64,000 bases of DNA from a virus (lineage: Duplodnaviria > Caudoviricetes), in the IMG/VR virus record IMGVR_UViG_2934356561_000002, positions 1 to 64,000 of that record. One strand, 5' to 3'. Position numbers and translations under genes: made by a program. Every line of letters starts with the position of its first letter. Position 1 is the stretch's first letter. Under the pieces are notes generated by a model. The model ran no database searches and was not told the DNA's origin. It was given only the letters and a program-made list of their open reading frames with translations. Shown piece by piece: positions 179-56,908 of the stretch.

Positions 179-693
179 GACTGGGGGTGTCCCTTCGGCT
201 TCTCGGTCTCGACGGAGGCGGCGCGGTTGGCGAGGCCGGTGTCGATGTCGTTGCGGGTGAGGGCTTGGGTGTCGGCGGTGGTGGTGGCGGCTTGCGCGAG
301 GGTGAGGGTGCGGGGCCGGCCGTGGAGCTGGGTGCAGTGGGCGGCGGTCTGGGCGGCTGCGTGGAGGTCGTGGCTGGTGGTGATGTGGTCGTGGTGCACG
401 GCGCCTTGGGGGCAGGGGGTGAGGGCGTCGAAGCCGGGGGTGTTCGGGGTGTGGGTGAGGGTGGCGCCGCTGGGGAAGTGGGCGCGGACGGTGCCATCGG
501 GCTGCGGGGTCCAGGCGGTTATGGGTATGAGGGGGAGTTCGGCGAGGCGGGCGGCGTAGGCGGTGCGGATTTGGTGTTCGGTGATGAACTCGGGGCCGGT
601 GCGGGGCCGGACGGGGAGGACCGCGCGGGTGGGGGTCGCGGTCTTCTTCGGTGCGGAGCTGGGGCGCGGCTTGGTGCTGGACTTCCTGCTCAC
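175..693 (-). CDS. Hypothetical phage protein
   Basis: 172-aa ORF with GTGA/ATGA overlaps on both sides. Confidence 0.65.
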   Translation of the reverse strand: MSRKSSTKPRPSSAPKKTATPTRAVLPVRPRTGPEFITEHQIRTAYAARLAELPLIPITAWTPQPDGTVRAHFPSGATLTHTPNTPGFDALTPCPQGAVHHDHITTSHDLHAAAQTAAHCTQLHGRPRTLTLAQAATTTADTQALTRNDIDTGLANRAASVETEKPKGHPQS

Positions 694-827
694 GGGTGTT
701 CTCCGTCCGGGTCCGGCGGGTCTTGCGGGTTGGTGGTGCCGATTCCGTGCTGGGAGGCGCAGATCATGGCGATGGCTACGGCTCCCAGCACGAGCGCGAT
801 GAGCTCGGGTGCGGTGGGCCAGGTCAC
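690..827 (-). CDS. Small membrane protein (45 aa)
   Basis: GTG overlaps the upstream TGA; hydrophobic stretch LIALVLGAVAIAMIC. Confidence 0.5.
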   Translation of the reverse strand: MTWPTAPELIALVLGAVAIAMICASQHGIGTTNPQDPPDPDGEHP

Positions 828-1252
828 GGGCAGGTGCAGTCCGGAGAGTTGGGGACTCGGCACGGGGTGGGGTGCTGCTGCCGCATGGCGTCCAGCTCGG
901 CCTCGTGCTCGGCGGCGGCTCGCGCCGCGCTGGCCGCGATGTTCTTCTTCAGCTGCTCCCGCGCCTCGTCCGGCGGGAGTTGCCGGTACGTGGGGCACGG
1001 GCAGGTCTGTCCGAACGCGAAGCACGAGTGCGGCGCGGGAGCCGTGTGGGCGTGTCGCGAGTGCCCGCAGGCGCAGAGGCGGGGGGTGGTGGACATCTCC
1101 AGTTCGGTGACCCGGGCACGCAGTCGGCTCACCTCGGCCAGCAGCACCGCAAGGTGACCGCTGATCACCGGGGCCGCACGATCGGACATCAGCTCCAGCA
1201 GGTCAAGCGTCCGGATCTCCTGCTCGCGCTCCGGCGTCAGTCGGGCGTTCAT
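824..1252 (-). CDS. Hypothetical protein with Cys/His cluster
   Basis: CACGHSRHAH...C...CPC motif; translationally coupled to neighbours. Confidence 0.7.
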   Translation of the reverse strand: MNARLTPEREQEIRTLDLLELMSDRAAPVISGHLAVLLAEVSRLRARVTELEMSTTPRLCACGHSRHAHTAPAPHSCFAFGQTCPCPTYRQLPPDEAREQLKKNIAASAARAAAEHEAELDAMRQQHPTPCRVPNSPDCTCP

Positions 1253-4434: not shown

Positions 4435-4722
4435 GGCTCGCTCCACGCTGGGAGGGGTTGTATGAACCGGGTGGTGGGTGGGGTGCGGGGGCGGAGGCGC
4501 TGCGATCCCTGCGAGGGGAGACCTCCGCCCCCTGCGGCCAGCCACCCCATGGGGGTGGCGGCTGCTCCAGACAAGTCGGTGGCCTGCGCGCCGGGAAGAG
4601 GCGTGACGTCGTATCACTCGGTCGAGTGACTGAAAACCTCGGCGCAGCAAGACCTTTCGACCGGATGCGACCACACACGACAACGGCCCCACTCCGCCTT
4701 GCGCGACGTAGCGGGGCCGGAT

Positions 4723-4741: not shown

Positions 4742-5620
4742 CTACTTCTCGGGGAAGCCAATCTTGTCGGTGATCTCGCGGACAACCTTCATCGGCTCAG
4801 ACTTTGGGGCCCAGATCGGGAGGGGCTCCTGTGCGTCGAATGCCTCGGCAACGACAACGGAGTTCCTGATGCCGGGCAGCAGCCGGTCGCCGTAGACCTC
4901 TTCGGCCTCGTCCTGCATGTTGGTGAAGAACTTGCCTTGACTCTCCGACTTGGCGTCGTTGACGCAGTACCAGGTGGGCTTGACCCGCACACCGTAGTCC
5001 TGGAAGTCAACGTTCAGCGACTCCACCTCCCTGGCAAGAGCCCGGGCGCCGCGAAGCTCCTTCCGCATCGGCTTCATCATCGTGATGACGTCAGTGGCGG
5101 CGACGAGGAGGGACTCAGAGAGACGGGCATACGAGGCGGGTGCGTCAATGCCGATGAAGTCGTACATGCCGGTCTGGATCTGTTTCTTGATGACGTTCTG
5201 GAGCCAGAACACGCCGAGGGTGTCCTGGACCAACTCGCCGTCGGCCTGCTTCATCTTGATGTCGCCGCGGACTAGGTCGAGGCCCTCGATGATCTGGAAC
5301 GACTCGTCGGTGTCACCCGGAGCGATACGCGTGCGGGCAGGCACGATGACTTCCTCAAGCTTGGCCTTGCCGAGCATCAGGTCGTGGATCGTCAGCACGC
5401 CGTCGGGCACGTCATCGCCGTCGTAGCCAGAACGGTAGGACAGGTCCGTTTGGAGGTCGGCGTCAAAGAGGAGACCGCGGTACCCGCGGAGTGCAGCCTC
5501 CGTGGCGAAGGCGTCAAGAACCGTGGTCTTACCGACCGAGCCGGCCCGGTTCATCATCACGTAGACGGGGATATCCAGGTGTGGCGCGTATGCAGGCCCC
5601 TCGTACTGGGGGTTCGCCAT
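4742..5620 (-). CDS. parA: ParA/Soj-family partition ATPase
   Basis: Deviant Walker A NRAGSVGKTT, DADLQ (A'), YDFIGIDAP (Walker B), IRNSVVVAEA. Confidence 0.9.
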   Translation of the reverse strand: MANPQYEGPAYAPHLDIPVYVMMNRAGSVGKTTVLDAFATEAALRGYRGLLFDADLQTDLSYRSGYDGDDVPDGVLTIHDLMLGKAKLEEVIVPARTRIAPGDTDESFQIIEGLDLVRGDIKMKQADGELVQDTLGVFWLQNVIKKQIQTGMYDFIGIDAPASYARLSESLLVAATDVITMMKPMRKELRGARALAREVESLNVDFQDYGVRVKPTWYCVNDAKSESQGKFFTNMQDEAEEVYGDRLLPGIRNSVVVAEAFDAQEPLPIWAPKSEPMKVVREITDKIGFPEK

Positions 5621-5654
5621 GAGGTCTCTCCTGAAGGGGGTGTCTGCTCGCCGG

Positions 5655-7031
5655 TCAGCCGAGGTGGCGGCGCTCCCAGTCGGTGGGTTCGTATCCGCCG
5701 TCGATGAGGTGACGGAGATGCGCGATGTCGCGGTAGTCCCAGTTGCGTCTGCGGCTGGAGGCCCGCAGTTCGGCTTGTGCGAGAGCGACCGCGTAGGCGA
5801 GTCGGGCAATCAGGTTAGCGTCCCCGCGTACTAGCACCGCGTCCCGGTAGCTCTCGGCTTCGAATGCGGCAGTGTCAGGGGCCCCGGCGGTCTTCAGCCA
5901 GGCGTGGGCCTTACTGACGGCGCCAGGGGTTGCGTGGAAGAGAGCCATTGATGCAATACGTGTTGTCTGGGGGTCTGCGGCCAAGTCCTTCGTGTCGCGA
6001 ACGAGGGTCTCGCAGTAAGCGTTACGGGCCGCGCTGGACTGTGCCCGCCCCGCGTTCTCGCCCCCGTCGTCGGTACTCTCTTCTGCCTCTGCTTGAGGTT
6101 CCTTCTCGGTGGTGCCCGCAGGAGCGTCGGACGGTTCTGTCAGAACCGGTTCGGTGCGTGCGGCAGGAAGCGACGGAGCTGCAGGCGGCAGCTCTTCGGT
6201 CAGGATGGTGGTTGCCTCAACCGGTTCTGCCAGAACCGGTTCGCCGGGGGCAGCAGAGGTCGTGAAAGGCGCCGCTGGAGCAGGAGCGGGCGCGGGAACG
6301 GTTCTGTCAGAACCGGTCATGAGGAGGATGTTTACAGCGTCGGCAGGGGTGACCTTATTCCGCATCATGATTGAAGCAGCCTCAAGGAACCGGTCGAGGT
6401 TCTCGCCGTCGAGGGCGACCAGGAGGTTGTAGGCGCTGTCGATGCTGACCTGCTTGCTGAGCACGGCCTTCCGGGCGTCTTCGGGCAGGTCCAGGAGCGC
6501 AATGCGCTTGGTCACAGTCGACTTGCCCTTGCCTACCCGCTTCGCAATGGCGGCGTGGCTCGCTCCCTTAACCGCCAGGCGCCGGTAGCCCTCGCCTTCC
6601 TGGAAGACGTTGAGCCCCTTCCGCTTGAGGTTCTCCTCAAGCATGACGAGATCGAGGTCGGGCATCAGTTCATCGCGGACATCGATCCGTACCTTGGTGA
6701 GGCCCGCCAGCCGGGCGGCGGCGTACCGTCGGTGCCCAGCGATGATGACGTAGTCGACGTTCGCGAGGCTCTGGCGCCCCTCGTACTGCGGGTACTCGGC
6801 AAGGAATGCGGCTCGAGTACCGACGAGGAGCGCTTGGAGAACTCCAGTCGAATGCATGGATGCGACGATCTCCTCGCGCTCTTCATCCGTCCCCAAGTCG
6901 TCTTCGCGAAGGTTGCGCGGGTTCGGTGCGACCTTGCCGACTGGAACTTCGCGTGGAGCCACGGTGGGACGAAGGGGGATCTCCTTCAGCGGCTGAGAGT
7001 TCCGGGATCCGCCGGCCCCATTACGCGGCAT
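5655..7031 (-). CDS. parB: ParB/Spo0J-family partition protein
   Basis: NPRNLR, GVLQALLV, IIAGHRRYAAA (GxxRxxA), ENLKRKGL, HTH; RBS AGGAGG. Confidence 0.92.
   Translation of the reverse strand: MPRNGAGGSRNSQPLKEIPLRPTVAPREVPVGKVAPNPRNLREDDLGTDEEREEIVASMHSTGVLQALLVGTRAAFLAEYPQYEGRQSLANVDYVIIAGHRRYAAARLAGLTKVRIDVRDELMPDLDLVMLEENLKRKGLNVFQEGEGYRRLAVKGASHAAIAKRVGKGKSTVTKRIALLDLPEDARKAVLSKQVSIDSAYNLLVALDGENLDRFLEAASIMMRNKVTPADAVNILLMTGSDRTVPAPAPAPAAPFTTSAAPGEPVLAEPVEATTILTEELPPAAPSLPAARTEPVLTEPSDAPAGTTEKEPQAEAEESTDDGGENAGRAQSSAARNAYCETLVRDTKDLAADPQTTRIASMALFHATPGAVSKAHAWLKTAGAPDTAAFEAESYRDAVLVRGDANLIARLAYAVALAQAELRASSRRRNWDYRDIAHLRHLIDGGYEPTDWERRHLG
6132..6315. repeat. Three parS-like palindromes inside parB (6132-6148, 6222-6238, 6299-6315)
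   Basis: CGGTTCTGNCAGAACCG x3. Confidence 0.75.
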
Positions 7032-13650: not shown

Positions 13651-15390
13651 CTACGCGGCGTCCGCGAGTACACGGTCCTGCGGGCTGTGAATGACGGCTC
13701 GCAGCCGGGTTCCGATCCAGGTGCCGACCCGCGGGCTCACTGCGTTGCCGAATCCGTCGACCTGGTTGCGGTCGGATCCCCAGACGGTGAAGGTGCCCTG
13801 GTAGTCGCCGAAGTCGACGTCGAAGCCGCACCCACGGCCGATCTCATACGCCCGCATCATGCGGAAGTAGCAGTCCTCAAGGGGCAGGTTGGCAAGCGAG
13901 GCCCGCCACTGCGCCATGAGCAGCGCCGTCGTGTCGTGAGCGGTGAGGGTGCCAAGCGGGTCGGTCAGTGGGTGCGGTGCGGTCTCGGTCCCAGTGGGGC
14001 CGTTCTGCTTGTACCAGCCGGCGGCCGTGAGCAGCCCCGGGATTTGATCCGAGGTGACCGTCGGCATCGCCTGGCTGTGCATCGTGGACAGCGTGTTCTG
14101 CCGGTACGGAATGACCCCCGAGGACACAATGGCAAGCGTTTCCGACCCGACCTGCGTAGGCAGCGGCTCCACGGCCGAGCGCGGGCCGCCCTGGTAGTTG
14201 TCCACGGCGAGCGCCATGGACGGCGTCACGAGCTCCGTTGTGGCGGACTGGTCCCACAGCGGTGGGGTAAGCGGCCCGGTCGACAGGATCGATGTTTCCT
14301 GCTGGCTGGTCTGCGTCGACATTGGCTGCCACGGATGCCGCTCCGAGCCGTGCACCGCCTTCGCTGGCATGAGCACCGCGGGGAATTCACCGAACCGCTG
14401 ACGGCAGCGCTCCGCGCGGGCCATCGTCGACCGCGCGAGCGGCCCGACGAAGCCGTCCTTGAACGTCTTGGTCGGCTTGTCGCCGATGCGGGTGCCCAGG
14501 TCGGACAGGTCGAGTGCGGCCAGCGACGGCGTCATCGGAGGGACGACCGGGCGGCGGCAGCTGGGGCACCGGTACTCGTACTGCTTGCCGTAGCGCACCG
14601 ACCCGGTCGGCGGAATGCCCGTCTTCCATGTCCACACCGCCTCGACGTCCTTGTCGCAGTGGTGGCAGCGCGACACCGGGCGGTGCTCTAGGTCGGGGGC
14701 GGGCAGGGACTTGTCCCAGAACGCGATGTACAGACGGTCGCGGGACTGCGGCACGCCGAAGAACTGCGAGTTCAGGTACAGCACCTTGTGCCGGTAGTTC
14801 AGCAGGTCGAACCGCTTGAGCCACCACCGGTACGTGGTTCCGTCGCCGACCTTCGGCCGTCCAGGGATGGCCGGCCCCCACGACGTCAGCTCGGTGGTGC
14901 ACTCGATCAGGATCAGCCGCGGGCGGTGCTGGGCTGCGTAGTGCAGGACACAATTCGCGGTGGCCCGGTCCCGCTCCGACTTCGTGACGCGGGCCTCGTA
15001 GTCGGGGTCCTCCAGCTCGAACAGTGTCCCGCCCTGCTCGTAGGCCTTGACTGTGTTGGCCTGCGAGTGGTTCGTGCACGTCACGCCCGCGACCAGCAGG
15101 TCCGCGGCGGGCAGGTCGCGGGCGGAGTGGTAGTCCGCCTCGTCGGGGTTGATCAGGTCAGCGATCCAGTGTTCGGCCTCGGGGTGGTTCGCCTCGTGGA
15201 CCTCGACCTTGTAGCTGTTGTGGTTCGCCGCCATGATCGTGGTGAACCCAGCTCGCTTGATGCCCTCGGTGAGGCCGCCGAAGCCGGAGAACAGGTCGAC
15301 AGCGACCAGGTCGTCGTGCCTGAACCGGCGACGCCTTACGGCCGGCCGGTGCGTGGCGGTGCGGGTCTGCATCGTGGTGGCACGGGCCAT
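13651..15390 (-). CDS. Orphan C5-cytosine DNA methyltransferase
   Basis: DLFSGFGG (I), GVTCTNHS (IV variant), QSRDR (VIII), GFGNAVSP (X). Confidence 0.88.
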   Translation of the reverse strand: MARATTMQTRTATHRPAVRRRRFRHDDLVAVDLFSGFGGLTEGIKRAGFTTIMAANHNSYKVEVHEANHPEAEHWIADLINPDEADYHSARDLPAADLLVAGVTCTNHSQANTVKAYEQGGTLFELEDPDYEARVTKSERDRATANCVLHYAAQHRPRLILIECTTELTSWGPAIPGRPKVGDGTTYRWWLKRFDLLNYRHKVLYLNSQFFGVPQSRDRLYIAFWDKSLPAPDLEHRPVSRCHHCDKDVEAVWTWKTGIPPTGSVRYGKQYEYRCPSCRRPVVPPMTPSLAALDLSDLGTRIGDKPTKTFKDGFVGPLARSTMARAERCRQRFGEFPAVLMPAKAVHGSERHPWQPMSTQTSQQETSILSTGPLTPPLWDQSATTELVTPSMALAVDNYQGGPRSAVEPLPTQVGSETLAIVSSGVIPYRQNTLSTMHSQAMPTVTSDQIPGLLTAAGWYKQNGPTGTETAPHPLTDPLGTLTAHDTTALLMAQWRASLANLPLEDCYFRMMRAYEIGRGCGFDVDFGDYQGTFTVWGSDRNQVDGFGNAVSPRVGTWIGTRLRAVIHSPQDRVLADAA

Positions 15391-16550
15391 CAGGCGGCGC
15401 TCCTCTCCGGGGCGTGGGCGTTCTGCTCGGCCTGTCGGGTCTGCTCCTTGAGTTCGGCGATGCGGGCGGTGACCATGTCGCCGAACGGCACCCAGCCGCC
15501 GACCGGGCCCTCGACCTCTCGTAGCAGCTGGTTGCGGCGGCCAGCCTCGGCCACGTCCTTCGTGAGCTCGGTGAAGTCGTTCCAGTGCCGCTGCACCTGG
15601 AGCATCAGCTGGTCGATCGGGTCGATACTGCTTGGCTGCTGTTCCCCGGCCGACGACTGCTCAGTGGCGGACCCTCGGAGTTGAGCGATGCGGGTGTTCA
15701 GCATGTCCTCGACTCGGGTCGGGACCTTCGGCTCACCAAACGGCACTTGCTCGTTCAGCAGGGCATTCGCGTGAGCCGCCGCCAGTACATCCACAGTGGC
15801 GTCGAGGCTGTTCCACCCCTCGCGGACGCGCGTCAGGAACTTGGTGAGTACCAGTTCCTGCGTCTGCGCGGGCGACATTGCGGCGGGAGCCTGTTCCGGC
15901 ACCGTGACCGTGTGGCTGTCGTTCTGGGCCTCCTGCGCGCTGGGCTCTGGGCGTACGGGCGGGTCTTCCGGCTCCGGCTCCGGCGGCTGTGCCTGCGGCT
16001 TCCACTCCTGCGGCGGGTGAGCAGCGGAGAAGACGACCACCGGGTCCTGTGACCCGTCGTTGTACAGCGACAGGCCGAACTGGTCACCGAGGTTCACCGC
16101 GCACCGCTTCAACGCCTGAGAGAACGCGGTCTTCATCGCCATGTCGTGCGCGTCGCCGAGTGAGGGCTGGTTCACGGAGTCGCCGGCTGCGCCGTCGTCG
16201 AAGTACGCGATCGCGGTACCGGTGCTGTTCTTGAGGATGAGGCGGACCTGGGCGCGGTAGACCACCGTCCAGCGTGACCGCTCGCCCTGCTTCGTCTCGC
16301 GTTCGGACACCAGGTCCAGGCCGATGGTCTCGATGTCGAAGCCGCCGAAGCCGAAGATGCGGATCAGCTGGCGGCGGACGTCCCACGCTTCGAGGTGAGA
16401 CATGCCGCGCAGGTTCCGGACCCGGTTGCCATTGATGCCCCCGTGAAGCATCCGCAGCTGGTACGGGGAGAACCGGGCGGTCTGATTTTGGGTGTGCGAG
16501 GTGGGGCCCTCCGCCGTGTTGCTGGCGGGGGCCTCGACGGCCGTAGCCAT
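15390..16550 (-). CDS. Sak/Rad52-family single-strand annealing protein
   Basis: SHLEAWDVRRQLIRIFGFGG...AMKTAFSQALKRCAVNLGDQFGLSLY. Confidence 0.88.
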   Translation of the reverse strand: MATAVEAPASNTAEGPTSHTQNQTARFSPYQLRMLHGGINGNRVRNLRGMSHLEAWDVRRQLIRIFGFGGFDIETIGLDLVSERETKQGERSRWTVVYRAQVRLILKNSTGTAIAYFDDGAAGDSVNQPSLGDAHDMAMKTAFSQALKRCAVNLGDQFGLSLYNDGSQDPVVVFSAAHPPQEWKPQAQPPEPEPEDPPVRPEPSAQEAQNDSHTVTVPEQAPAAMSPAQTQELVLTKFLTRVREGWNSLDATVDVLAAAHANALLNEQVPFGEPKVPTRVEDMLNTRIAQLRGSATEQSSAGEQQPSSIDPIDQLMLQVQRHWNDFTELTKDVAEAGRRNQLLREVEGPVGGWVPFGDMVTARIAELKEQTRQAEQNAHAPERSAA

Positions 16551-19524: not shown

Positions 19525-20607
19525 TCAGCCGGCCGGAGACTCCTCCAACGGCACCGCGGCCACGGAGCGCCGGATCTGCTCCATCGTCGTCGGCAACGGC
19601 TCCCACCCGTACTGCCCGGCCATCACCCAGTTCAACGCGGTGATGCCCCGCGCGTACGCCTGCCGCAACCCCTGCGGCCGTAGCGGCACCCCCGGCGGGC
19701 CGGCCTTCGACGGCACCAGCGATACCCACAACGCAGTCTTCGCACCCGTCAGCGGCAGCGACTCCACCAGCTGCTGCCGCACCTTCAACCAGCGGCGCAC
19801 CGCGACCTGTGAGCCCTCCCGCAGCGGGTACCACTCCACCTCCGGCAACGGCTCCAGCTCGGCAACCGCGGCCAGGACTCGCTGCCGGGTATCCTCCGAC
19901 ACTCGCTCCACCCAGCCACCCAGCACCGACCGGGCCGCCTCCGTCCCCACCTCCGCCAGAGCGGCGATCTCCTCGACCCGGTTCGGGGGCGCCTTCTGCT
20001 GCTGCCGGCGCACCGCCACCGCCGTCTCACCCGAGGTCAGATCCGACAGGGACTGCGCAGCCAACTCCCCGGACCGTGGTGCAGCGTCCAGCATCACCGC
20101 CACGATCGCAAGCAGCCGGGTGCGGTCCTCGAACGACAAGGCCGTACCGTCCCGCTCCAGCGGCCCCTGCCCGGCCAGATCCACCATCCCCCGGTACAGG
20201 GCATCCAGCGACCGGCCACCCACCGTGGCCTTCGGCTCCGGGTTCGCGACCGACGGCAGGCGCACCGTCTTTCCTGCGGGCAGCACCTCACGGGCTAGGA
20301 TCTTCAGGCAGTCCCGAACGATCCGCAGCGTCCACTCCGGCAACGGCTTCCCGACATCCTTCTGGGCGTGCCGCAACTGCCCGTCGACCGCGAGATCCCA
20401 GAACGCGCGCAGCGCAGCCCACGTGAACAATTGGGCCGCGGTCCGGGACGCCCGGCCCGGCATCTCATCCCGGCCTACCGCCCGGTCGAACATCCCGACC
20501 ACCATCCGCAGTTGCCGCAGCCGGCCCTCCGACACCCGCCCGGCCATGCCGTCGACCACCGCGGCGAGCTGCCGGACCGAGGGGGCGCTGTACTGCTTGG
20601 GGGTCAT
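19525..20607 (-). CDS. Tyrosine recombinase-like protein lacking the C-terminal catalytic motifs
   Basis: RTRLLAIVAVMLDAAPRSGEL box I; ends shortly after EQIRRS with no nucleophile Tyr. Confidence 0.7.
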   Translation of the reverse strand: MTPKQYSAPSVRQLAAVVDGMAGRVSEGRLRQLRMVVGMFDRAVGRDEMPGRASRTAAQLFTWAALRAFWDLAVDGQLRHAQKDVGKPLPEWTLRIVRDCLKILAREVLPAGKTVRLPSVANPEPKATVGGRSLDALYRGMVDLAGQGPLERDGTALSFEDRTRLLAIVAVMLDAAPRSGELAAQSLSDLTSGETAVAVRRQQQKAPPNRVEEIAALAEVGTEAARSVLGGWVERVSEDTRQRVLAAVAELEPLPEVEWYPLREGSQVAVRRWLKVRQQLVESLPLTGAKTALWVSLVPSKAGPPGVPLRPQGLRQAYARGITALNWVMAGQYGWEPLPTTMEQIRRSVAAVPLEESPAG

Positions 20608-21755
20608 GACGATTGCTCCTGCTGGGGCACTGCGGCCTTCCTCGCGATCTGCGTCAGCGGGTTCCGCTCACCCTGACTGTCCTCTTCGTCGATGTACCCG
20701 ATCAGGGCCTTCGACCGATCGTCCCATCCGCCGTGCCGGCCGATGTCCACGATGTCGGCCCCCGCGGCGCGGGCCGTCTTCACCAGGCCTCGACGCAGCG
20801 AGTGCGACGTCCACTTTCCTGGCATCCCCGTGCGGTGGATCGACCGGCTGACGACATCGGACGCGCCGTTGATGCTGATCCGCCCGGTGGGGTCACCAAT
20901 CGGTTTGCCTTCGCGGGTCATCTCGGCGCCCATGTATCCCCACTGGTCGATCCGCATGAACAGCGGCCCGGAGGTGTACCCCTCATGGGCGAGCGCCGCC
21001 ACCAGGGCCCGTACCGCAGTCACTGCGCACAGATCTGCATCGGGGTCCGGGACGACCTCGACAGACTGCCACTTCTTCCGCTTCTTCCGGTAGACCTTCA
21101 CCTTGAACCCGCCCTCCGGTAGGTCCGTAAAGTTGGCCGGCCAGTTCAGTGGAACGAGCTCGCTGCCGCGGGACCCGATGGCGTGCCCCAGCAACATGAG
21201 CGCAGCATCCCGCCTCCCGACGAGGGTGGTGCGGTCAAGGTGGACAAGCGCTTCACGGAGAACGTCTCGGTCGGCGGCCGTGGCCTTCTTCGGGGTGGCA
21301 GCCGGGTCTTGGGCGAGAGACAACTCCTTCCGGTACCCGGCGACGACCTTGCGTGCGCCCATAGTGTCCGGGGGCTCGTATCCGGCGGCCCGGTGCGATG
21401 AGCGGATCGACGCGATGATCCTGTCCATCGTCGCGGGACCGTACGGCTTCCCTGTCCGTTCGCGGGGTGTGCGCTTCAGGTACGACAGGTATGCGGTGAC
21501 GGTGTGCGGCGCGGCAGGCATGACACGGCGGCCTACCGTGGCGCACCATTCGGCGAAGCGCTCCATGTCACCTTCGTACGCCCGGCTGGTGTCGCGCGGG
21601 ATGCCAGCCTGAACGTCCTCCTGCGCTTCGGGCGGCAGCCACGCGTCTGGATCCTTATCGACCAGCGGAACGGCGGGAGTTCGGTCCTCCGGGATGGCAG
21701 GGAGTTGGTCCTCCTCGACCAGCTCCGCGTCCACCACGTCGTCATGCTCGGTCAC
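20604..21755 (-). CDS. Cre-like tyrosine recombinase
   Basis: RDAALMLLG..IGSRGSEL; HSLRRG; GRHGGW; LIGYID (R-H-R-W-Y intact). Confidence 0.92.
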   Translation of the reverse strand: MTEHDDVVDAELVEEDQLPAIPEDRTPAVPLVDKDPDAWLPPEAQEDVQAGIPRDTSRAYEGDMERFAEWCATVGRRVMPAAPHTVTAYLSYLKRTPRERTGKPYGPATMDRIIASIRSSHRAAGYEPPDTMGARKVVAGYRKELSLAQDPAATPKKATAADRDVLREALVHLDRTTLVGRRDAALMLLGHAIGSRGSELVPLNWPANFTDLPEGGFKVKVYRKKRKKWQSVEVVPDPDADLCAVTAVRALVAALAHEGYTSGPLFMRIDQWGYMGAEMTREGKPIGDPTGRISINGASDVVSRSIHRTGMPGKWTSHSLRRGLVKTARAAGADIVDIGRHGGWDDRSKALIGYIDEEDSQGERNPLTQIARKAAVPQQEQSS

Positions 21756-22003
21756 CGTGAGACCCGATCAGCCGTAGCCCACCGCAGCCGCAGCTCCATC
21801 GTGCGAAGACTGACGAGCCAGTGGTAGAGCTCCAACTCGTCTCGGCAGAGTCGGGAAAGCGGCCGCCCCGTGTGCTCGTCCCGTACACCCCACCTCTTCA
21901 TACCTAGACGGGTTCGTTTCGTGAAGCGCACGTACCTTTCCGGATGACAGTCGTCTCCGCACTCGGTCAAGGCCTTCTCGCTTGCTTTGATCTTTGGCTC
22001 CAT
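21752..22003 (-). CDS. Small basic protein coupled to the recombinase
   Basis: 83 aa; GTGA overlap with the recombinase start. Confidence 0.55.
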   Translation of the reverse strand: MEPKIKASEKALTECGDDCHPERYVRFTKRTRLGMKRWGVRDEHTGRPLSRLCRDELELYHWLVSLRTMELRLRWATADRVSR

Positions 22004-22026
22004 AGAAGGAACATTATCTGGAGCCA
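21995..22026. promoter_or_regulatory. 13-6-13 imperfect palindrome (lox/dif-like site or operator)
   Basis: TGGCTCCATAGAA-GGAACA-TTATCTGGAGCCA, arms 11/13 symmetric. Confidence 0.5.
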
Positions 22027-22098
22027 CGACGCTCGCTGCCCCCGAAACGACGATGACCCCGCACGGTGGCGAGGTCATCAAGGCAGATCAGTCTCTGG

Positions 22099-22326
22099 CT
22101 AGCGCTCGTTCAGAATGTCCTCGATCTTGCCCGAGGTGATGGCACCGTCCGGGATCTTCGACCACTCGGCAACGGGCATGGGCGCCGCCCACGAGGGGAA
22201 GGACGGGACGTGAACTTTAGCGGCCCGCCTCCGGTCGCGGATCCAGTACCCGATGAACGTGCCGACGAAGGCTCCGACCAGAGCGGCGACGCCGGTGAGG
22301 ATCGCGGTGAGGTCCATGCTCATCAT
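22099..22326 (-). CDS. Small single-TM protein
   Basis: LTAILTGVAALVGAFVGTFIGYWI followed by basic residues; start uncertain. Confidence 0.55.
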   Translation of the reverse strand: MMSMDLTAILTGVAALVGAFVGTFIGYWIRDRRRAAKVHVPSFPSWAAPMPVAEWSKIPDGAITSGKIEDILNER

Positions 22327-22423
22327 GATGGCAGACAGCACTGACATCCGGCGTGGCATCTCATGTGAGCCTATCAAGCATCAGAAAGCGGAGGGCTCCG
22401 CCGTTTCTTCGCTGTGCGCGATC

Positions 22424-23080
22424 CTAAGCTTCGGTCCCCTTCGCGGCGTTCCGCTGCTCCCGCTCCAGACGGCTCTTCTTGAGCGCCGCCATCCGTGCCG
22501 GCCCCTGGTACACCTCCTCCAGGATCTCGTCCATCAGCGCGACAATAGCTTCGGCATCCTCGGGCGGCATCGGCTCGTCCGCCAAGTCCCCGTGCGCAAT
22601 CTCGTTGCCGCCCTCACGGATCTCGTGTGCTAGTTCCCTCGTGATTTCCCGGATGAGACTCTGCTTGTGCATCTCGTCGATCTTGGCCACCAATGGACCC
22701 TTGACGATGCCGTGGTCCTTGGCCGTGGCTTCGACAACCGCGCGGGCGAGAGCAACTGCTCCCCGGTAGGCAGATATCGACAGGCAGGCGTGAGCCTCGC
22801 TCGCGGCCGCCGCAATCTGTTGCGGCACATCATCGAAGGAGCGGCGCCGAATGGTCTTCGGCTCCCACTCCAGAACGGGCTCCCTGGGCATCTCCGACTT
22901 CGGGTTGGTGAAGTTGGATTTACGCCAGATGGTTCCGATGGACAGGCGTAGGCACGTTTCGTTCGAACACTGAAAGGTTGCCGTATAGACGTACCCGGCC
23001 TGCGCAGGGACCGACTTTGGATCCGTTTGCATTGCCATGTGGGTGCGGTCGCCGCACCATCCGCAGATCGTACTTGCCAT
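22424..23080 (-). CDS. DUF4145 (HEPN-like) protein with N-terminal Zn ribbon
   Basis: CGWC...C; EAHACLSISAYRGAVALARAVVE...REGGNEIAH. Confidence 0.82.
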   Translation of the reverse strand: MASTICGWCGDRTHMAMQTDPKSVPAQAGYVYTATFQCSNETCLRLSIGTIWRKSNFTNPKSEMPREPVLEWEPKTIRRRSFDDVPQQIAAAASEAHACLSISAYRGAVALARAVVEATAKDHGIVKGPLVAKIDEMHKQSLIREITRELAHEIREGGNEIAHGDLADEPMPPEDAEAIVALMDEILEEVYQGPARMAALKKSRLEREQRNAAKGTEA

Positions 23081-23124
23081 GTGCGCAGGGTACTTGAGGC
23101 TGACGCACACACGATCTGCAAGGA

Positions 23125-23289
23125 CTACGGGTACAGCAGCCGGGACAGCGGTGCGGGTCGGGCGCCCGGCTCGTGCGGGCGGGCCGGCAGGTCGGTGGTG
23201 ACGTCCGGCGGTGGTTCAGCCGGGGGCTGGGTGTTGTTGTCGGGGCTGGTGATGGCCTCGACCTCGCGGGGGTCCAGGTTGGTGCTCAT
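23125..23289 (-). CDS. Small Pro-rich leaderless protein (54 aa)
   Basis: MSTNLDPREVEAITSP...LSRLLYP; late-type promoter ends 6 nt before ATG. Confidence 0.45.
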   Translation of the reverse strand: MSTNLDPREVEAITSPDNNTQPPAEPPPDVTTDLPARPHEPGARPAPLSRLLYP

Positions 23290-23334
23290 GAGTCAAGAGT
23301 GCGCCTGGTGGCGGAAGTTACTGCCCCGGGTCGC

Positions 23335-23370
23335 TTGTGTAGCGTTCGCGATGCGTGTAGCGTATGCATC
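23335..23370 (+). promoter_or_regulatory. Leaderless promoter of the cassette array with direct-repeat operator
   Basis: TTGTGT-N17-TAGCGT-N7-ATG; TGTAGCGT at 23338 and 23356. Confidence 0.65.
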
Positions 23371-23814
23371 ATGAAGGATAAGAAGAACTGGTACGCCGAG
23401 TTCGGCAGCGCCAGCAACAAGCGCGAGGACGCCGTCTTCGACGTCCACCCCGACGTGGCCACCGCCTTCGCCGACGCCATCCGCAACCAGGCCAACGTCC
23501 AGGGCCCCCACCACGCCCAGGACTTCGACGACCTGACCGCCACCATCGCCCAGACCTCCCGCCTCATCCAGCATCTGGAGGCCTTCCGCGAACTGGCCAT
23601 CGTCGCCGCAGACCGCACCAGCCCCCACGCCGACCGCAAGGCCATCGCCATCGCCGCCGCCATGCCGCCCTCCCGGCTCTACCGCGTTCTGGAGAAGCAC
23701 GGACGGCCGAAGAACCGCAGCAAGGCCTACGACGAGGCCGTCCACGAAGCGCTCGACAAGGGCCTCAAGGGCGACGAGATGTGGGACCACGCCAACCGGA
23801 CCACCGAGCAGTGA
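23371..23814 (+). CDS. HTH protein, first gene of the cassette array
   Basis: DRKAIAIAAAMPPSRLYRVLEKHG HTH; ends NRTTEQ. Confidence 0.8.
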   Translation: MKDKKNWYAEFGSASNKREDAVFDVHPDVATAFADAIRNQANVQGPHHAQDFDDLTATIAQTSRLIQHLEAFRELAIVAADRTSPHADRKAIAIAAAMPPSRLYRVLEKHGRPKNRSKAYDEAVHEALDKGLKGDEMWDHANRTTEQ

Positions 23815-23825
23815 GGACCACGACC

Positions 23826-24032
23826 ATGCAGCAGTCAGACATCGAGTCGGTTCTGTGGGACTGCGTAACCGCACCCGACGATGACTCCAGCTACCTAGGC
23901 GACCAGACCTCTGGAATCAGCAAGCTTGCCGCGCTGATCGCCGAGCAGAACCGCCGAATCAACGAGCTGGAAGAGACGCTCGCGCGCATCACTGAACGGC
24001 CGTTCCCGCCCGACCGCACCGCCGAGCAGTGA
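23826..24032 (+). CDS. Cassette gene 2, 68-aa coiled-coil protein
   Basis: Starts and ends in junction repeats; ends DRTAEQ. Confidence 0.75.
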   Translation: MQQSDIESVLWDCVTAPDDDSSYLGDQTSGISKLAALIAEQNRRINELEETLARITERPFPPDRTAEQ

Positions 24033-24043
24033 GGACCACGACC

Positions 24044-24202
24044 ATGACCACCCCCGACGAACTTCGGGCACGCGCCACCGAGCTGGAGAGCCGCGTTCCG
24101 CCGGTGACCGCCGGGCCCCCCACCGACGACGAGCGGATGTGGCTGGAGAAGGCCGCAGCCCTCCGCGCCGAAGCGGACACCCTCGACGGCGCCGAGCAGT
24201 GA
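24044..24202 (+). CDS. Cassette gene 3, 52-aa helical protein (absent from the ORF track)
   Basis: MTTPDELRARATELESRVPPVTAGPPTDDERMWLEKAAALRAEADTLDGAEQ. Confidence 0.75.
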   Translation: MTTPDELRARATELESRVPPVTAGPPTDDERMWLEKAAALRAEADTLDGAEQ

Positions 24203-24213
24203 GGACCGCGAGC

Positions 24214-24447
24214 ATGTGGAACTGTGCGAACTGCGGCACTGAGAACCAGGAGCACGACGAGCACTGCCAGAACTGCGACACCTGGCGCAGCGAGCAGGAA
24301 GGCCCCGACGGACAGATCTGCGGTGACAGCTATGACCACGAGGTGGTCATCGACCACCGGGGGCCTGACGGAATCCAGTGGCATTGCGCTCGGGGAGAGT
24401 GCGGAGCCGAAGTCTGGGACCCTGCCCCGATCACCACCGAGAAGTGA
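24214..24447 (+). CDS. Cassette gene 4, RanBP2-like zinc-finger protein
   Basis: MWNCANCGTENQEHDEHCQNC; ends ITTEK. Confidence 0.75.
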   Translation: MWNCANCGTENQEHDEHCQNCDTWRSEQEGPDGQICGDSYDHEVVIDHRGPDGIQWHCARGECGAEVWDPAPITTEK

Positions 24448-24458
24448 GGACCACGACC

Positions 24459-24734
24459 ATGGCGCGATACACCGAGGGTCAGCGAGCCTTCCTGGCTGGC
24501 AATCCGAAGCCGAAGGGACCGAGCAAGCCGTGGCGTGTCCTGCTGTCTGAAGCAGGTGGATCAACCCGGCAGGACTTCCGATCCAGCCAAGCCGCGTACG
24601 AGCACGTCGTTGCCGAACGCCAGCGTGCCGAGTCTAGGGAATCCGAGACCGTCAGCATTCGTGTTCTCCAGTGGACCGATGGTGACTGGGCTCTGTATGA
24701 GCGCATCACTCCGAACCGAACCGCCCATCAGTAG
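24459..24734 (+). CDS. Cassette gene 5, 91-aa hypothetical protein
   Basis: Starts in junction repeat; ends NRTAHQ (degenerate half-junction). Confidence 0.75.
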   Translation: MARYTEGQRAFLAGNPKPKGPSKPWRVLLSEAGGSTRQDFRSSQAAYEHVVAERQRAESRESETVSIRVLQWTDGDWALYERITPNRTAHQ

Positions 24735-24745
24735 CCGCACAGCAC

Positions 24746-24782
24746 GGTGCCCGCGACCAAGGTCTAGTTGGTCGCGGGCACC
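24746..24782 (+). terminator. Perfect 15-bp hairpin closing the cassette array
   Basis: GGTGCCCGCGACCAA-N7-TTGGTCGCGGGCACC. Confidence 0.75.
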
Positions 24783-24937
24783 TGCGTGTCAGCCTACCGG
24801 TGGCCTCACCTGCGCGTACGTCCGTACCCGCACCCCCGGTTCGCCCGGTACCCGCCACACCTCCGACGGGCCCGACGTCGCCCACCGCTCACCCAGCTCC
24901 GCAACCGCGACGGCCGTCCAGACGAAGGGACTACCGG

Positions 24938-25276
24938 CTACCGCTCCCGCAGGTTGTACGGGCTGATCTCCTCGTACCGATCGTCGGACTCATCCCGGCC
25001 GAAGCTCTCCTCCCAACGCTCCGGCCAGTTCGCCGGGCCGCCGACCCGGAACCGATCATCTGCCCACCGGGGTTCCCCCACACAGAAGGCGTGCACCTGG
25101 GGCTGGTCGTCACCGCCCCGGCGGACGAACTCCTCGTCGTAGATGAGGAAGTGGCCCATGTCGTCGCGGTCCTCGCGGACTTCCTCCGGCAGGGTGACCA
25201 CCCGGGTCACCTTGTCGTCGTCGACGTCGACCTCAACCATCACCGGCATTACGTACCGGACCCACCGCTTCGCCAC
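24938..25276 (-). CDS. Acidic hypothetical protein
   Basis: VAKRWVRYVMPVMVEVDVDDD...; start uncertain. Confidence 0.6.
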   Translation of the reverse strand: MAKRWVRYVMPVMVEVDVDDDKVTRVVTLPEEVREDRDDMGHFLIYDEEFVRRGGDDQPQVHAFCVGEPRWADDRFRVGGPANWPERWEESFGRDESDDRYEEISPYNLRER

Positions 25277-54391: not shown

Positions 54392-56794
54392 TCAGTTCTG
54401 GGGCTTGCGGAGTACGGGGTGGTTGCCGTGCTCGTCAGGGGTGGCGCTGATGACGCCGTCGGCGGCGAGGTCAGCGATGACCGTGTTGGCTACCTCCCAG
54501 CCGATGCGGAGGTTCCGCTGAAGGAATGCGGCGGAGGCGTGCTGCTTGGCCACCACCAGTTCCACGGCGTCACCCATGACGGCGATGACTTGGCTGGTGA
54601 GACTGTTGTTCGTGCCCGGCTGGTCTCCGGTGTTGCCTTTTTCGTCGGTGGTCCACACGTAGACGCCGCGGCCCGGCTTCTGGATGTTGGGGTGGGCTGT
54701 GAACCAGTTCTGCACGGCGGTGTCGGACGGGGGTGTTTCGCCCGGGTACAGGGCTTCGAGCCGGGCGCGGACGTCTGCGACGGTGATGCCGTCCTTGCCT
54801 GCGTCGCGGACCCAGTTGGTGACCTCGTCGCGCCGGGGGTGCCGACGGTTGTTCTTCGTCGGCTTGATGAGGTCGACGGCGGCCTGCTTGGTGAGATTTT
54901 CGGCCTCGCTGAGCAGGCGCTCAACTGCGGCGGGGTCCAGTGCGGGCTCGGCTTCGGCGGCGGCCGGGGCCTGGGCCTGCTCGTATTGCTTGGCGCGCTC
55001 GATGTAGGAGTCGATGGAGGGCAGCGGGGCGATGGTTCCCGTGGCCGCGGCAGCTGACGGGCGGGCGGGCCGGGCCGGGCCCTGAGGTGCCGGGGCGGGG
55101 GTTGCGGGTTCGGTGGTGTTGGCAGGGGTGGGGCGGCCGATGGCGTCGAGGAGCCAGTTGATGCGGTCGGCCGCCCAGCGGGTGGAGTATCCGTAGGGGG
55201 CGGCGTCAGCCTGAGACTGCTTGTCGAGGTCGGGGCGGATGTCCCAGCGTTCGACGGCCTTCTCCTCGATGACGCGGGCTTCGGTGCCGTCGGGGTGCTC
55301 GTCGTCGTCATAGATGAAGTAGCCCTTGAACTTCTCGGGACCCATGCCGGTCTTGGAGCGCTTCTCGTCGAGGACGTAGAAGGATCCGTCGCCGGGCAGC
55401 TTGGACAGGTCGACGCGCTGGAAGTAGTCGGGGAACACGAACTGGCCTTCGCCCTTCTTGGGGAAGCGGCCTCCGATGACGGTGTCGTACTGGGACATGA
55501 CTTCGCCGCCGCCGGTGTTGGGTCCGGTGCCACGCTGGGCTGCGTCGATGTAGTCGACGGCGGCCTTGCGGCCCTTCTTGATGCCGCGGATCTTCTCCTG
55601 GATCGCCTCGGGGACGCGGGACATGAGCTCGGGGTTCTCGTCGGTGATGACGATGAGGGCCGGGGTGGTGGCGGTGGGGCGGATCTTGCCTCCGGGCATG
55701 CGGCGGGCACGGCCGTCGGCGACGGCGACGGATGCCTTGAGGAGACGCACGGCTTCTTCGACCGAGGTGGCGACCCAGTCGAGGATGGGCCGGTCGATGA
55801 GCCGGTCGTGCTGGTCCTTCCACTGCTCGACCCAAGGCCGCAGCCACCGCTTGGCTGTATTGCCCTCGGCCATGTCGATCATCCAGATGACGGCGTCGGT
55901 GCAGCGGGTGATGACACTGATGATGCAATGGAGCAGGACGGACTTGCCGCTCCCCTTCTTGCCGGCGATGAACACGCTGTTCTGCCGGAACTTGATCTCG
56001 AAGGGTTCGCCGGATTCCAGGGCGCCGAGGGTGAGGGGTTCGGTGATGGTGAGGGGGTGGGTGTCGTCGGGCAGGTCGATGGACTCGGACAGGACGTTGC
56101 GGGTGGAGACGTACAGGACGGCGTCGGAGGCGAGACCGCTGTCGCCGGGGCGGAGGTCGAGGGCGCCGGTACGCAGGTCGCCCTTCTTCGTCTCGATCAT
56201 CGGCAGCATAGGCAGGATCTGGGCGTACGGGGTGCCGGTGAGCTTGAGAGGCAGGGCGTATCCGCCGCGGGTGGTGAACGAGTCCGGCTGCACCTTGACG
56301 CCGCGGGCGCCGGCCTGCTCGAAGAGGCGCTCCCACTCGTTGCCGTCGACGACCTGGTTCTGCTTGGCCTCCTCGGCCCACTGGGCGGCGATCATGTCGT
56401 GGCGGAGGTAACGGTCAACGGCGTAGGCGGGGGTGAGGGCTGCGGTGGCGATCGCGACGGTCGCGGCGGAGGCCATGGTCCACGGGGAGTCGTGGGATGT
56501 CCAGGTGAGCCAGGCGTAGGTGGCGGCGGTCCAGGTCGCGGTGAACGCGGTGTGGAAGGTGCGGGCGGGGACGGTCTGGTGGCGGGTGCGGAACCAGCGG
56601 GATGCGGCGGCGGTGACGATCCCGGTGATGGAGCCGAGGCCCATGAGAGCGATCGGGAGGCCGGTGCCGTCTGTGGCGAGGTCCATGGCGAGGCCGCCGG
56701 CGTACACGGTGGCCGCGGTGTAGAGCGGCGTGGTGATGGTGCCGTGCCGCCACGGGATCGGCTCGTGGTTGCGGGGGCGGTCGAACATGGACAC
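54392..56794 (-). CDS. traB: Conjugative DNA translocase TraB (FtsK/SpoIIIE family)
   Basis: N-terminal TMs, GKKGSGKS Walker A, IVITDE Walker B, AAQR, C-terminal wHTH plus FtsK-gamma-like domain. Confidence 0.85.
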   Translation of the reverse strand: MSMFDRPRNHEPIPWRHGTITTPLYTAATVYAGGLAMDLATDGTGLPIALMGLGSITGIVTAAASRWFRTRHQTVPARTFHTAFTATWTAATYAWLTWTSHDSPWTMASAATVAIATAALTPAYAVDRYLRHDMIAAQWAEEAKQNQVVDGNEWERLFEQAGARGVKVQPDSFTTRGGYALPLKLTGTPYAQILPMLPMIETKKGDLRTGALDLRPGDSGLASDAVLYVSTRNVLSESIDLPDDTHPLTITEPLTLGALESGEPFEIKFRQNSVFIAGKKGSGKSVLLHCIISVITRCTDAVIWMIDMAEGNTAKRWLRPWVEQWKDQHDRLIDRPILDWVATSVEEAVRLLKASVAVADGRARRMPGGKIRPTATTPALIVITDENPELMSRVPEAIQEKIRGIKKGRKAAVDYIDAAQRGTGPNTGGGEVMSQYDTVIGGRFPKKGEGQFVFPDYFQRVDLSKLPGDGSFYVLDEKRSKTGMGPEKFKGYFIYDDDEHPDGTEARVIEEKAVERWDIRPDLDKQSQADAAPYGYSTRWAADRINWLLDAIGRPTPANTTEPATPAPAPQGPARPARPSAAAATGTIAPLPSIDSYIERAKQYEQAQAPAAAEAEPALDPAAVERLLSEAENLTKQAAVDLIKPTKNNRRHPRRDEVTNWVRDAGKDGITVADVRARLEALYPGETPPSDTAVQNWFTAHPNIQKPGRGVYVWTTDEKGNTGDQPGTNNSLTSQVIAVMGDAVELVVAKQHASAAFLQRNLRIGWEVANTVIADLAADGVISATPDEHGNHPVLRKPQN

Positions 56795-56908
56795 TGAGGT
56801 CTCCTTGGTGGTCTGGGCCGGGGGTGGTGGCCGGGCCTGCGGGGGTGCGGGCCCGGCCGGTGGCGCTGTTCGGAACTGGTCCTGCGGCAAATCGGTTGCG
56901 GGTGTGGG

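Follow-up and report, generated by a model that had tools for sequence, protein, structure and literature searches.

A five-gene array with a repeated junction

The window analysed here, the first 64,000 nucleotides (nt) of IMG/VR virus record IMGVR_UViG_2934356561_000002, belongs to a pZL12-like Streptomyces phage-plasmid, in which phage genes are combined with partition and replication genes on a replicon of about 90 kb. Region 23335-24782 of the window contains five genes on the same strand (g1 to g5, encoding 147, 68, 52, 77 and 91 amino acids (aa)), which span 23371-24734 and are followed by a hairpin. Successive genes are joined by four copies of one junction of 27-30 nt, with homology extending up to about 40 nt. 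It begins inside the upstream gene, whose last four codons read ACC ACC GAG C/AAG, and continues with the stop codon TGA, the Shine-Dalgarno (SD) sequence GAGGA, an A/C-rich spacer of 8 nt and the ATG of the next gene. In all four copies the stop codon lies 11 nt before the ATG. Unrelated proteins therefore end alike (Table 1, where the tail of g1 is given as encoded by the junction), while no mutual similarity was found among g1 to g5 beyond the last 18 residues or so. The first-pass annotation of this DNA, made from its letters and open reading frames, had described the same array and the same alike endings, and the 29-mers were found at exactly the four positions it gave.

The junction was found to be confined to the array. 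The 25-mer CCGAGCAGTGAGGACCACGACCATG had four matches at up to three mismatches in the window, against 0.00 expected from 100 shuffles. The 17-mer core also had four matches (shuffle mean 0.39, maximum 2), and in the whole record of 92,016 bp it occurred four times on the forward and never on the reverse strand, with no copy outside the array. A search of Rfam at E≤1 with 22800-25200 gave no match. The sole inverted repeat in 23300-24850 was that of the terminator (24725-24803); the junctions are non-palindromic and form no hairpin.

The junction in other Streptomyces elements

A scan of viral contigs detected the motif in 11 other contigs, nine of which were examined whole, together with one found through a g1 homologue. 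In all ten related records the matches (26 in total, 1-5 per record, at up to three mismatches) fell in one cluster on one strand, while a backwards-pattern control yielded one match over the ten records. With the record of the window included, 11 out of 11 viral records have a single cluster of at most 1.5 kb. The 29-mer is locus-specific in the record and in 10/10 viral relatives, and not the common ribosome-binding context that the first-pass annotation had named as one of two outcomes against its idea.

The search was extended to 185,579 species genomes with a 17-18-base pattern, MAGTGAGGACNNCGACCATG. It matched at least 100 stretches, and the 80 considered here comprise 37 from Streptomyces and 43 singletons in other genera. 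The codons outside the search pattern separate these groups: GAG precedes 35 of 47 Streptomyces sites and ACCGAG 20 of 47 (two of the 47 are counted twice, since loci L051 and L052 overlap), compared with 2/43 and 0/43 in the other genera. Five Geodermatophilus genomes (L042, L049, L080, L086 and L105) share CGACAGTGAGGACGACGACCATG and similar upstream sequence; judged from these sequences, they probably have a single gene boundary in common that is conserved within the genus and has no relation to the arrays of Streptomyces.

The junction is present on plasmids as well as in phage records. Plasmid pSAM1 of S. ambofaciens ATCC 23877 has an eight-gene array, in which the Prokaryotic Genome Annotation Pipeline (PGAP) places the starts at the same ATGs; of its seven boundaries four have the 11-nt gap, one is an overlap, one is 7 nt and one 10 nt. 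On a plasmid of S. californicus, RefSeq likewise calls the same ATG starts with 11-nt gaps, and a linear S. rochei plasmid of 150 kb carries an array next to parB. In relatives of the window the flanks are 67-83% identical, and the junction hits, 25-46 nt long, 87-100%. One Streptomyces contig of 94,632 bp (L038 and L101) has junction-linked genes at two places about 34 kb apart.

Gene chains were walked in 45 loci (44 without the duplicate L071), giving 119 boundaries, 83 of which lay within four mismatches of a 23-mer of the junction. The consensus is ACCACCGAG(C/A)AGTGAGGAC(CA/AC)CGACCATG, with two main variants, GAGCAGTGAGGACCACGACCATG and GAGAAGTGAGGACACCGACCATG. Over these 83 motif junctions, conservation spans about -27 to +2 relative to the ATG and is strongest from -24 to +2. 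The stop codon was at its fixed position in 80 of them, the first base of the start codon was A in about 98%, and the gap was 11 nt in 81, a count that, for the first boundary in a locus, partly follows from the way the boundary was defined.

A second, unrelated type of junction, AAGGAGA(G/A)CTGACCATG, links a number of cassettes and, in other elements, stands after homologues of g1. Its upstream tail is KES or KEN, its SD sequence lies inside the coding end and 2 nt separate stop and ATG. It was seen in L022, L026, L030 and L023, and in contig X3 at window position 23798.

Cassette content and turnover

The genes between the junctions, called cassettes here, differ from element to element. 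After trimming of the shared tail, 118 cassette proteins fell into 78 families, 55 of them singletons, and each of the 11 families with three or more members had 2-7 different left neighbours. A Pfam family was assigned to one of 117 cassettes (DUF6354) and a PHROG to five of 103, one of them anti-repressor-like. The first genes also vary and comprise at least five unrelated families, the types found being the g1 family, a CxCGC...GHDK zinc protein, a family of about 140 aa, a 275-aa protein, a Xis-like helix-turn-helix (HTH) protein and a truncated Phd/YefM antitoxin.

Three of the four cassettes of the window recur elsewhere (g3, the C-terminal half of g4, and g5). A g3 homologue is the last cassette of record G005 (L026), with 87.6% nt identity over 170 nt from the junction on; it has no TTEQ tail and ends in DTDV. 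The same cassette is found in pSAM1, in the linear S. rochei plasmid and in many other plasmids. The C-terminal half of g4 exists as a free-standing cassette of 53 aa in L025 and L087 (81% nt identity). Fixed gene content between the junctions, the outcome against which the idea of shuffling had been set in the first-pass annotation, was not what the comparison of relatives gave: cassettes are gained, lost and paired anew, with block edges at the junctions.

Two arrays contain unusual members. In L028, the first gene of the array (4446-4604, minus strand) encodes a 53-aa Phd/YefM-type antitoxin N-domain (Pfam, E 6e-13) with the tail TTEQ and is followed by an unassigned gene of 153 aa; on this evidence the array may have acquired a toxin-antitoxin pair. 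P0130, a Streptomyces protein of 132 aa homologous to g5, consists of a g5-type cassette fused in frame to the 'MSGIYDDGATYGP' cassette, which is free-standing in L022. The fusion passes through a read-through junction (…AEK-QGHD-M…); either two cassettes were naturally fused there, at the junction, or P0130 results from an assembly error.

Block edges and breakpoints

When homologous cassettes in different arrays were compared, identity was at background level in the region -90 to -30 upstream of the start (0.17-0.45). It rose to typically 0.6-0.97 in the junction, where both copies had the motif, and was 0.3-0.95 in the coding sequence. Past the next junction it returned to 0.15-0.43 in all but three pairs. 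The assembly of another organism (run X2) matches the window only at 23802-24047, i.e. junction, g2 and junction, with four differences in 246 nt, and the sequence on both sides of this block in its contig is unrelated. In about 15 plasmid records the g3 block has its left edge near 24007-24050 and its right edge inside the next junction or close to it.

Parts of junctions were also found. Terminal genes often keep the left half (ACCGAG-C/AAG-stop, sometimes with GG) fused to the terminator module, and 13 of 43 terminal genes end in E[QK]. L025 has an ATG-less remnant of a junction ahead of a truncated cassette, and in L026 an orphan left half lies 44 nt past the stop codon of a 235-aa gene. 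As far as sequence comparison goes, the fused array ends, the remnant and the orphan half show breakpoints inside the junction.

Junctions resemble each other more within arrays (2.44 mismatches per 20 nt) than between arrays (2.98; permutation p 0.009), and their variants are tied neither to the family of the downstream cassette (p 0.26) nor to that of the upstream cassette (p 0.41). That variants follow the array and not the cassette is expected if crossovers fall inside the junction.

Nucleotide constraint and translation signal

Codon choice in the shared tail is nearly uniform. Thr is encoded by ACC in 83 of 87 cases (61% in the cassette bodies, p 2e-12), Glu by GAG in 68 of 71 (68%, p 3e-8) and Arg by CGC in 26 of 30 (43%, p 2e-6). 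The last residue of the tail alternates between Q and K (40 vs 36), in two junctions a TAG at the CAG codon shortens the tail, and the non-coding spacer is conserved as well as the tail codons. The C-termini of the g1 homologues are TEQ, TEK or KEN according to the type of junction after the gene. Since synonymous sites are fixed, Q, K and TAG vary and the spacer is equally conserved, the tail peptide appears to be a by-product, and the conservation of the junction is best seen as acting at the nucleotide level and not on a peptide tag.

The predicted unpaired probability is 0.48-0.55 at the junction and 0.36-0.41 in mid-gene (p 3e-11). GAGGA can pair with CCUCC at the 3' end of the 16S rRNA, a sequence verified in a Streptomyces chromosome. 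RNAduplex pairings of the junction variants with the 16S tail were contorted and were not interpreted. The in-frame stop, GAGGA 8 nt before the ATG, the A/C-rich context and the gap of 11 nt together form a predicted termination-reinitiation site.

Recombination genes near the array

Two recombination genes lie on the minus strand upstream of the array (Table 1). The Rad52/Sak-type single-strand annealing protein is a candidate for catalysis of short-homology exchange. The Sak/Rad52 type reaches the Pfam cut-off in only one of the ten related viral records, yet the position of the gene is syntenic: it is occupied by a Rad52 type in the window (G000) and in G010, by ERF in G005 and by RecT in pSAM1. 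An annealase of some family thus seems common, while Sak itself is not the shared factor; the Sak protein that the first-pass annotation had put forward would be one candidate helper among several. This mosaic slot corresponds to 15390-16550 (-) in the window, 193-1188 (-) in L140, 276-1505 (-) in L141 and 252-1169 (-) in L139, and the slot proteins of G004 and G005 share the first 30 residues or so and a C-terminal stretch with the protein of the window. The tyrosine-recombinase-like gene is also syntenic in relatives.

Interpretation of the junction

The junction is read here as a translational-coupling connector that doubles as a short patch of homology for the exchange of cassettes among Streptomyces elements, a reading to which a probability of roughly 0.55 is given. 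The array would be a hypervariable operon between the recombinase and regulatory region and the lysis genes, with a promoter-like start and a terminator of its own. A ribosome ending the upstream gene would be handed, 11 nt further on, to the SD sequence and ATG in a weakly structured stretch, so that any gene placed behind the connector would be expressed. The cassettes in the pool of Streptomyces plasmids and phage-plasmids would all carry the same 27-30 nt (up to about 40), and crossovers would therefore be located in the connector and carry entire genes along in frame, whether the partners are two elements that reside in or infect the same cell or two repeats of a single array. The elements' own annealases of the Rad52, ERF or RecT type may assist. 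The TTEQ or TTEK tail of the upstream protein would be a by-product. The case for a crossover site is built on the block edges, the chimeric array ends and the variants that follow the array instead of the cassette. Shuffling as such is well supported by the comparison, its mechanism being unproven.

Several points weigh against this reading. A stretch of 27-30 nt is short for RecA-type recombination, and the annealase family differs between elements, with none identified in G004, where a 306-aa protein occupies the slot. The sample favours loci with the motif, since the motif served to find most of them; arrays were cut at ±2 kb and genes were called heuristically. No junction-to-junction joints were detected in three sets of assembled DNA contigs, which cannot show rare variants. 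Mosaicism at gene boundaries is general in phages, and selection for intact genes would also put block edges near gene ends. A cassette that stands behind a standard junction in L025 is found, 95% identical, behind a different junction (AAGGAGAGCTGACCATG) in L022. Finally, in plasmid NZ_CP109494.1 (L138), whose flanks are 90-94% identical, the entire module from promoter to terminator is replaced by a different two-gene operon, the breakpoints, 23329 and 24813, lying away from every junction. The stretch 21740-23138 (a DUF4145 gene and its neighbours) is replaced in this plasmid too, by HTH and endonuclease VII genes, and from these replacements the whole interval from recombinase to lysis genes appears hyperplastic.

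Beyond the connector as described, it may be asked whether it is an assembly standard of the whole genus: a linker tuned to the host ribosome and independent of any integrase, actively used by phage-plasmids, linear plasmids and prophages to exchange minigenes, either through interchangeable Rad52, ERF and RecT annealases or through replication slippage. The elements would then draw on a shared pool of at least 78 small-protein families, nearly all of them uncharacterised, possibly for anti-defence, exclusion or host takeover. This extension is offered tentatively, and we would sooner doubt than assume it.

The junction could instead serve expression or regulation only, as an optimised coupling site or as an operator through which a factor of the host or of the element (an RNA-binding protein, a small RNA or an RNase) controls all cassettes together. 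Purifying selection would then maintain it, and turnover would be left to the ordinary illegitimate or gene-boundary mosaicism of phages. Conservation is indeed strongest around stop, SD sequence and ATG (-24 to +2), the gap between stop and start is invariant, predicted accessibility is higher in the junction than inside genes, and GAG(A/C)AGTGA is kept in L056 and L027, where the upstream gene ends earlier. Re-assortment at non-standard boundaries and the replacement of whole operons with breakpoints outside junctions fit as well. The nearest analogue at sequence level, the start-associated sequence (SAS) of cluster K phages, was suggested to act in translation initiation, possibly via a factor, in the parts of its description drawn on here (PMC3203893). 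Such a role leaves unexplained, however, why the left half is retained at array ends with no gene after it. A universal partner is not encoded either, the first genes belonging to at least five unrelated families and the arrays to different replicon types, which leaves a factor of the host, for example the ribosome, as the only one they could have in common. The 92-kb record holds no complementary copy of the motif, and Rfam finds nothing. Trans factors specific for one variant are weakened as candidates by four arrays that mix both main variants. A purely expression-related junction is thus possible, at odds clearly short of even.

A protein-level explanation, in which the C-terminal peptide (xTTEQ/K) is selected as a degron, a targeting or a secretion signal, had been raised in the first-pass annotation for targeting and degradation. 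It would account for E at -2 in 71 of about 80 junctions, for T at -3 in 54 and for the tail kept by terminal genes (the 13 of 43 above) that have no downstream cistron. It is disfavoured by the near invariance of synonymous sites (ACC 95%, GAG 96%, CGC 87%), by the Q/K alternation at the last residue and the TAG in two junctions, by the equal conservation of the non-coding spacer and by cassettes that occur with other tails (g3 with DTDV in L026, members of the g1 family with KEN), and we consider it quite unlikely. Integrons hold promoterless, exchangeable cassettes behind one promoter, with an attC hairpin for each cassette and the tyrosine recombinase IntI. The label 'integron-like', given to the array at first, holds only as an analogy of architecture: a row of apparently promoterless, unrelated genes lies behind one promoter-like site, and a tyrosine-recombinase-like gene, syntenic in relatives, lies about 1.6 kb upstream on the opposite strand. 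It fails for the site, as the 27-30-nt junction has neither dyad symmetry nor an attC-like hairpin and the terminator is the only inverted repeat of the region. The recombinase stays below the Pfam cut-off and more plausibly serves integration or dimer resolution in a phage-plasmid. Arrays with the same junction stand next to parB on the 150-kb linear plasmid (where a neighbouring recombinase was not searched for), and the breakpoints do not share one site within the junction: at array ends they follow TGAGG, and in other places they coincide with the ATG. Site-specific insertion and excision of cassettes by the neighbouring recombinase is therefore very unlikely; the junction has the features of a translation signal, and homology would be the simplest explanation of exchange. 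Least probable of all, to the point of being scarcely credible, is that the five genes are diverged tandem duplicates with ends conserved by chance. The 3' ends of g1 and g4 do share about 59 nt at 76% identity, but g1 to g5 have no other similarity, and g3, g4 and g5 each have homologues of their own in other arrays.

Relation to known systems

The connector invites comparison with two ideas from outside the present data. In the modular theory of Susskind and Botstein, short conserved 'linker' sequences at module boundaries are proposed crossover points in lambdoid phages. Those linkers are rare and debated, whereas the Streptomyces one is explicit, occurs repeatedly and has been conserved in dozens of elements. 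The synthetic bicistronic designs of Mutalik et al. (2013), with an SD sequence at the end of an upstream cistron and a close stop and start, reportedly give reliable downstream expression. They are engineered, while the junction is natural, with a putative function that is alike.

Closest in its way of working would be the promoter-early stem-loop (PeSL) of T4-type phages. As described in the parts of the report used here (Arbiol et al. 2010, PMC2839356), PeSLs are units of about 100 bp with a sigma-70-like promoter and a terminator stem-loop, ending in an SD sequence and start. They flank small ORFan genes in hyperplastic regions, and the genes at the motifs differ between related phages. 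Homologous recombination between the motifs was proposed, the system was likened to integrons without an integrase, and recombination was shown through mini-circles by inverse polymerase chain reaction (PMC2839356). The two systems have in common a motif that ends in SD sequence and start before ORFans, a hypervariable region and content that differs between relatives. They differ in that a PeSL cassette is its own transcription unit, while the junction is 27-30 nt long, contains no promoter (no -35/-10 pair) and no hairpin, begins within the end of the upstream coding sequence and would connect genes that share one mRNA. Its setting is also another one, that of temperate phage-plasmids and plasmids in high-GC Streptomyces. 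Mini-circles have been shown for PeSL; shuffling in Streptomyces is supported by sequence comparison.

At sequence level the SAS of cluster K mycobacteriophages (Pope et al. 2011) is the closest analogue. According to the sections of PMC3203893 consulted, it has a 13-bp consensus, GGGATAGGAGCCC, and its function was unknown; copies occur throughout the non-structural half of the genome, and inverted-repeat extensions accompany about half of them. Like the junction, it is an asymmetric, SD-containing motif of actinobacteriophages that precedes mostly ATG starts of unrelated gene families in one orientation, is conserved beyond the need of rRNA pairing and sometimes includes the upstream stop. 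The junction differs in sequence, is longer, is strictly linked to a stop with the 11-nt gap and is confined to one operon (two in one contig). Cassette shuffling is proposed for the junction, and none is claimed for SAS in those sections (PMC3203893).

Searches of the openly accessible literature with junction strings and keywords found no description of the junction; subscription journals and the original pZL12 paper were outside that scope. If the connector directs exchange, shuffling of the PeSL type, known from lytic T4-like phages with Gram-negative hosts, would reach Streptomyces and its temperate phage-plasmids and plasmids, with a linker that is translational and not transcriptional as in PeSL. 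Were it an assembly standard as well, it would functionally be an integron built from a translation signal. The array is a compact, recognisable locus in which dozens of uncharacterised small-protein families are concentrated, and so a practical place to look for phage-host interaction factors. As the host of pSAM1, S. ambofaciens ATCC 23877, is genetically tractable, both proposed functions can be tested directly. A compact coupling element that does not depend on the gene might also serve operon construction in Streptomyces.

Genes and signals of the array

Table 1. Coordinates of the array, its junctions and nearby recombination genes in the window
Feature	Position	Strand	Description
Rad52/Sak-type single-strand annealing protein	15390..16550	-	Pfam Rad52_Rad22 E 4.2e-19; PHROG recombinase / DNA repair protein
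Tyrosine-recombinase-like gene	20604..21755	-	about 1.6 kb upstream of the array; PHROG integrase E 1.4e-8; Pfam Phage_integrase E 2e-4, below cut-off
Promoter-like stretch	23335..23370	+	TTGTGT 23335-23340, 17-nt spacer, TAGCGT 23358-23363, 7 nt to ATG
g1	23371..23814	+	open reading frame, 147 aa, first gene; tail RTTEQ encoded by junction
Junction 1	23800..23828	+	ACCACCGAGCAG-TGA-GGACCACGACC-ATG: upstream tail, stop, SD GAGGA, spacer, start
g2	23826..24032	+	68-aa cassette, tail RTAEQ; no family match
Junction 2	24018..24046	+	
g3	24044..24202	+	52-aa cassette, tail GAEQ; widespread in Streptomyces plasmids
Junction 3	24188..24216	+	most diverged copy (2 mismatches in 25-mer)
g4	24214..24447	+	77-aa cassette, tail TTEK; N-terminal CxxC...CxxC zinc-ribbon-like part
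Junction 4	24433..24461	+	
g5	24459..24734	+	91-aa last cassette, tail RTAHQ
Decayed left junction half	24720..24734	+	ACCGCCCATCAGTAG; ends g5, array end
Perfect 15-bp hairpin	24746-24760 / 24768-24782	.	7-nt loop; between convergent genes, conserved GTGTCAGCCTAC after it

The first-pass annotation had placed a leaderless promoter before g1. The spacing of the promoter-like stretch to the ATG fits a leaderless start, but a sigma-70 consensus scan of 23100-24950 gave no promoter-like site, either inside the array or before g1. The stretch is conserved in a relative (G010/L031), and a TAnnnT hexamer lies 6-7 nt before the ATG in five other first genes of relatives, which together suggest a putative leaderless start for g1.

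The label of 'HTH gene' that g1 had received could not be confirmed. No match was found for g1 in Pfam, PHROGs or NCBIfam. An AlphaFold2 model had a predicted local distance difference test (pLDDT) score of 89.6, and its residues 71-120 weakly resemble HTH domains (best Foldseek E 0.3 against PDB; VIA Z at most 5.0), neither of which was counted as a match; from this model g1 is a possible small HTH protein. The 182 homologues of g1 all bear the name hypothetical; residues 1-116 form a core that is conserved among them, while the C-termini vary (TEQ, TEK, KEN). The 'ParB/Srx' first gene of plasmid NZ_CP109578.1 was ruled out as a counterpart, as BLASTP yielded no alignment.

Among the other genes, g4 gave weak Zn_ribbon matches in Pfam (E 0.018). 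NCBIfam had nothing for any of g1 to g5, and for g4 and g5 the ESM Atlas offered unnamed clusters and weak zinc-ribbon leads. With g2 and g5 as queries, no related loci were detected in viral contigs. In Streptomyces g5 has eight homologues, mostly of 91 aa and 62-81% identical. Six of these eight end in TEQ, TEK or DEK and a seventh (P0126) in TTE, so the degenerate junction half that had been noted at 24720 is real.

The resemblance between the 3' ends of g1 and g4 reaches well past the junction and covers 59 nt (76% identity; 23770-23828 and 24403-24461). Their proteins end in …MWDHANRTTEQ and …VWDPAPITTEK, with an E value of 0.01 over 18 residues. This likeness suggests an older exchange with a crossover further upstream.

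The perfect 15-bp hairpin at 24746-24782, present as first described, is likely a bidirectional terminator, to judge from its structure and position. A scan for the intrinsic-terminator consensus gave one terminator-like site, outside the operon; the hairpin has no T-run. It forms part of an array-end module (window 24735-24800) consisting of the stop codon, CCCGCACAGC(G/A)CGAC, a GC-rich hairpin and GTGTCAGC(C/G)TA, which is conserved behind unrelated last genes in the window and in L022, L024, L026, L027, L038 and L075.

The host element

The whole record of 92,016 bp has a G+C content of 68.3% and a terminal repeat of 95 bp. By PHROG assignment it encodes the phage proteins TerL, portal, major capsid protein, tape measure, tail, holin and endolysin, and the same record carries ParA, ParB and a replication initiator of plasmid type. 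Its TerL is 66.5% identical to that of phage ZL12 (pZL12, 90,435 bp), the only close named phage. A search of INPHARED phages with 23300-24800 by blastn gave no match, and ZL12 (GQ919031.1) has no junction match at up to three mismatches, so the array is not universal in the pZL12-like group. Parts of the array region are common to about 25 Streptomyces plasmids, many of them of 85-99 kb.

The array is the lone plus-strand operon between minus-strand recombinase and regulatory genes on one side and minus-strand tail-fibre and lysis genes on the other, and in the RefSeq annotation of relatives it occupies the same position. FtsK/SpoIIIE-like proteins are of the type that serves plasmid transfer in Streptomyces, and one is encoded by this tailed-phage genome, alongside ParA and ParB (window 54392-56890 (-) and 4742-7031 (-)).

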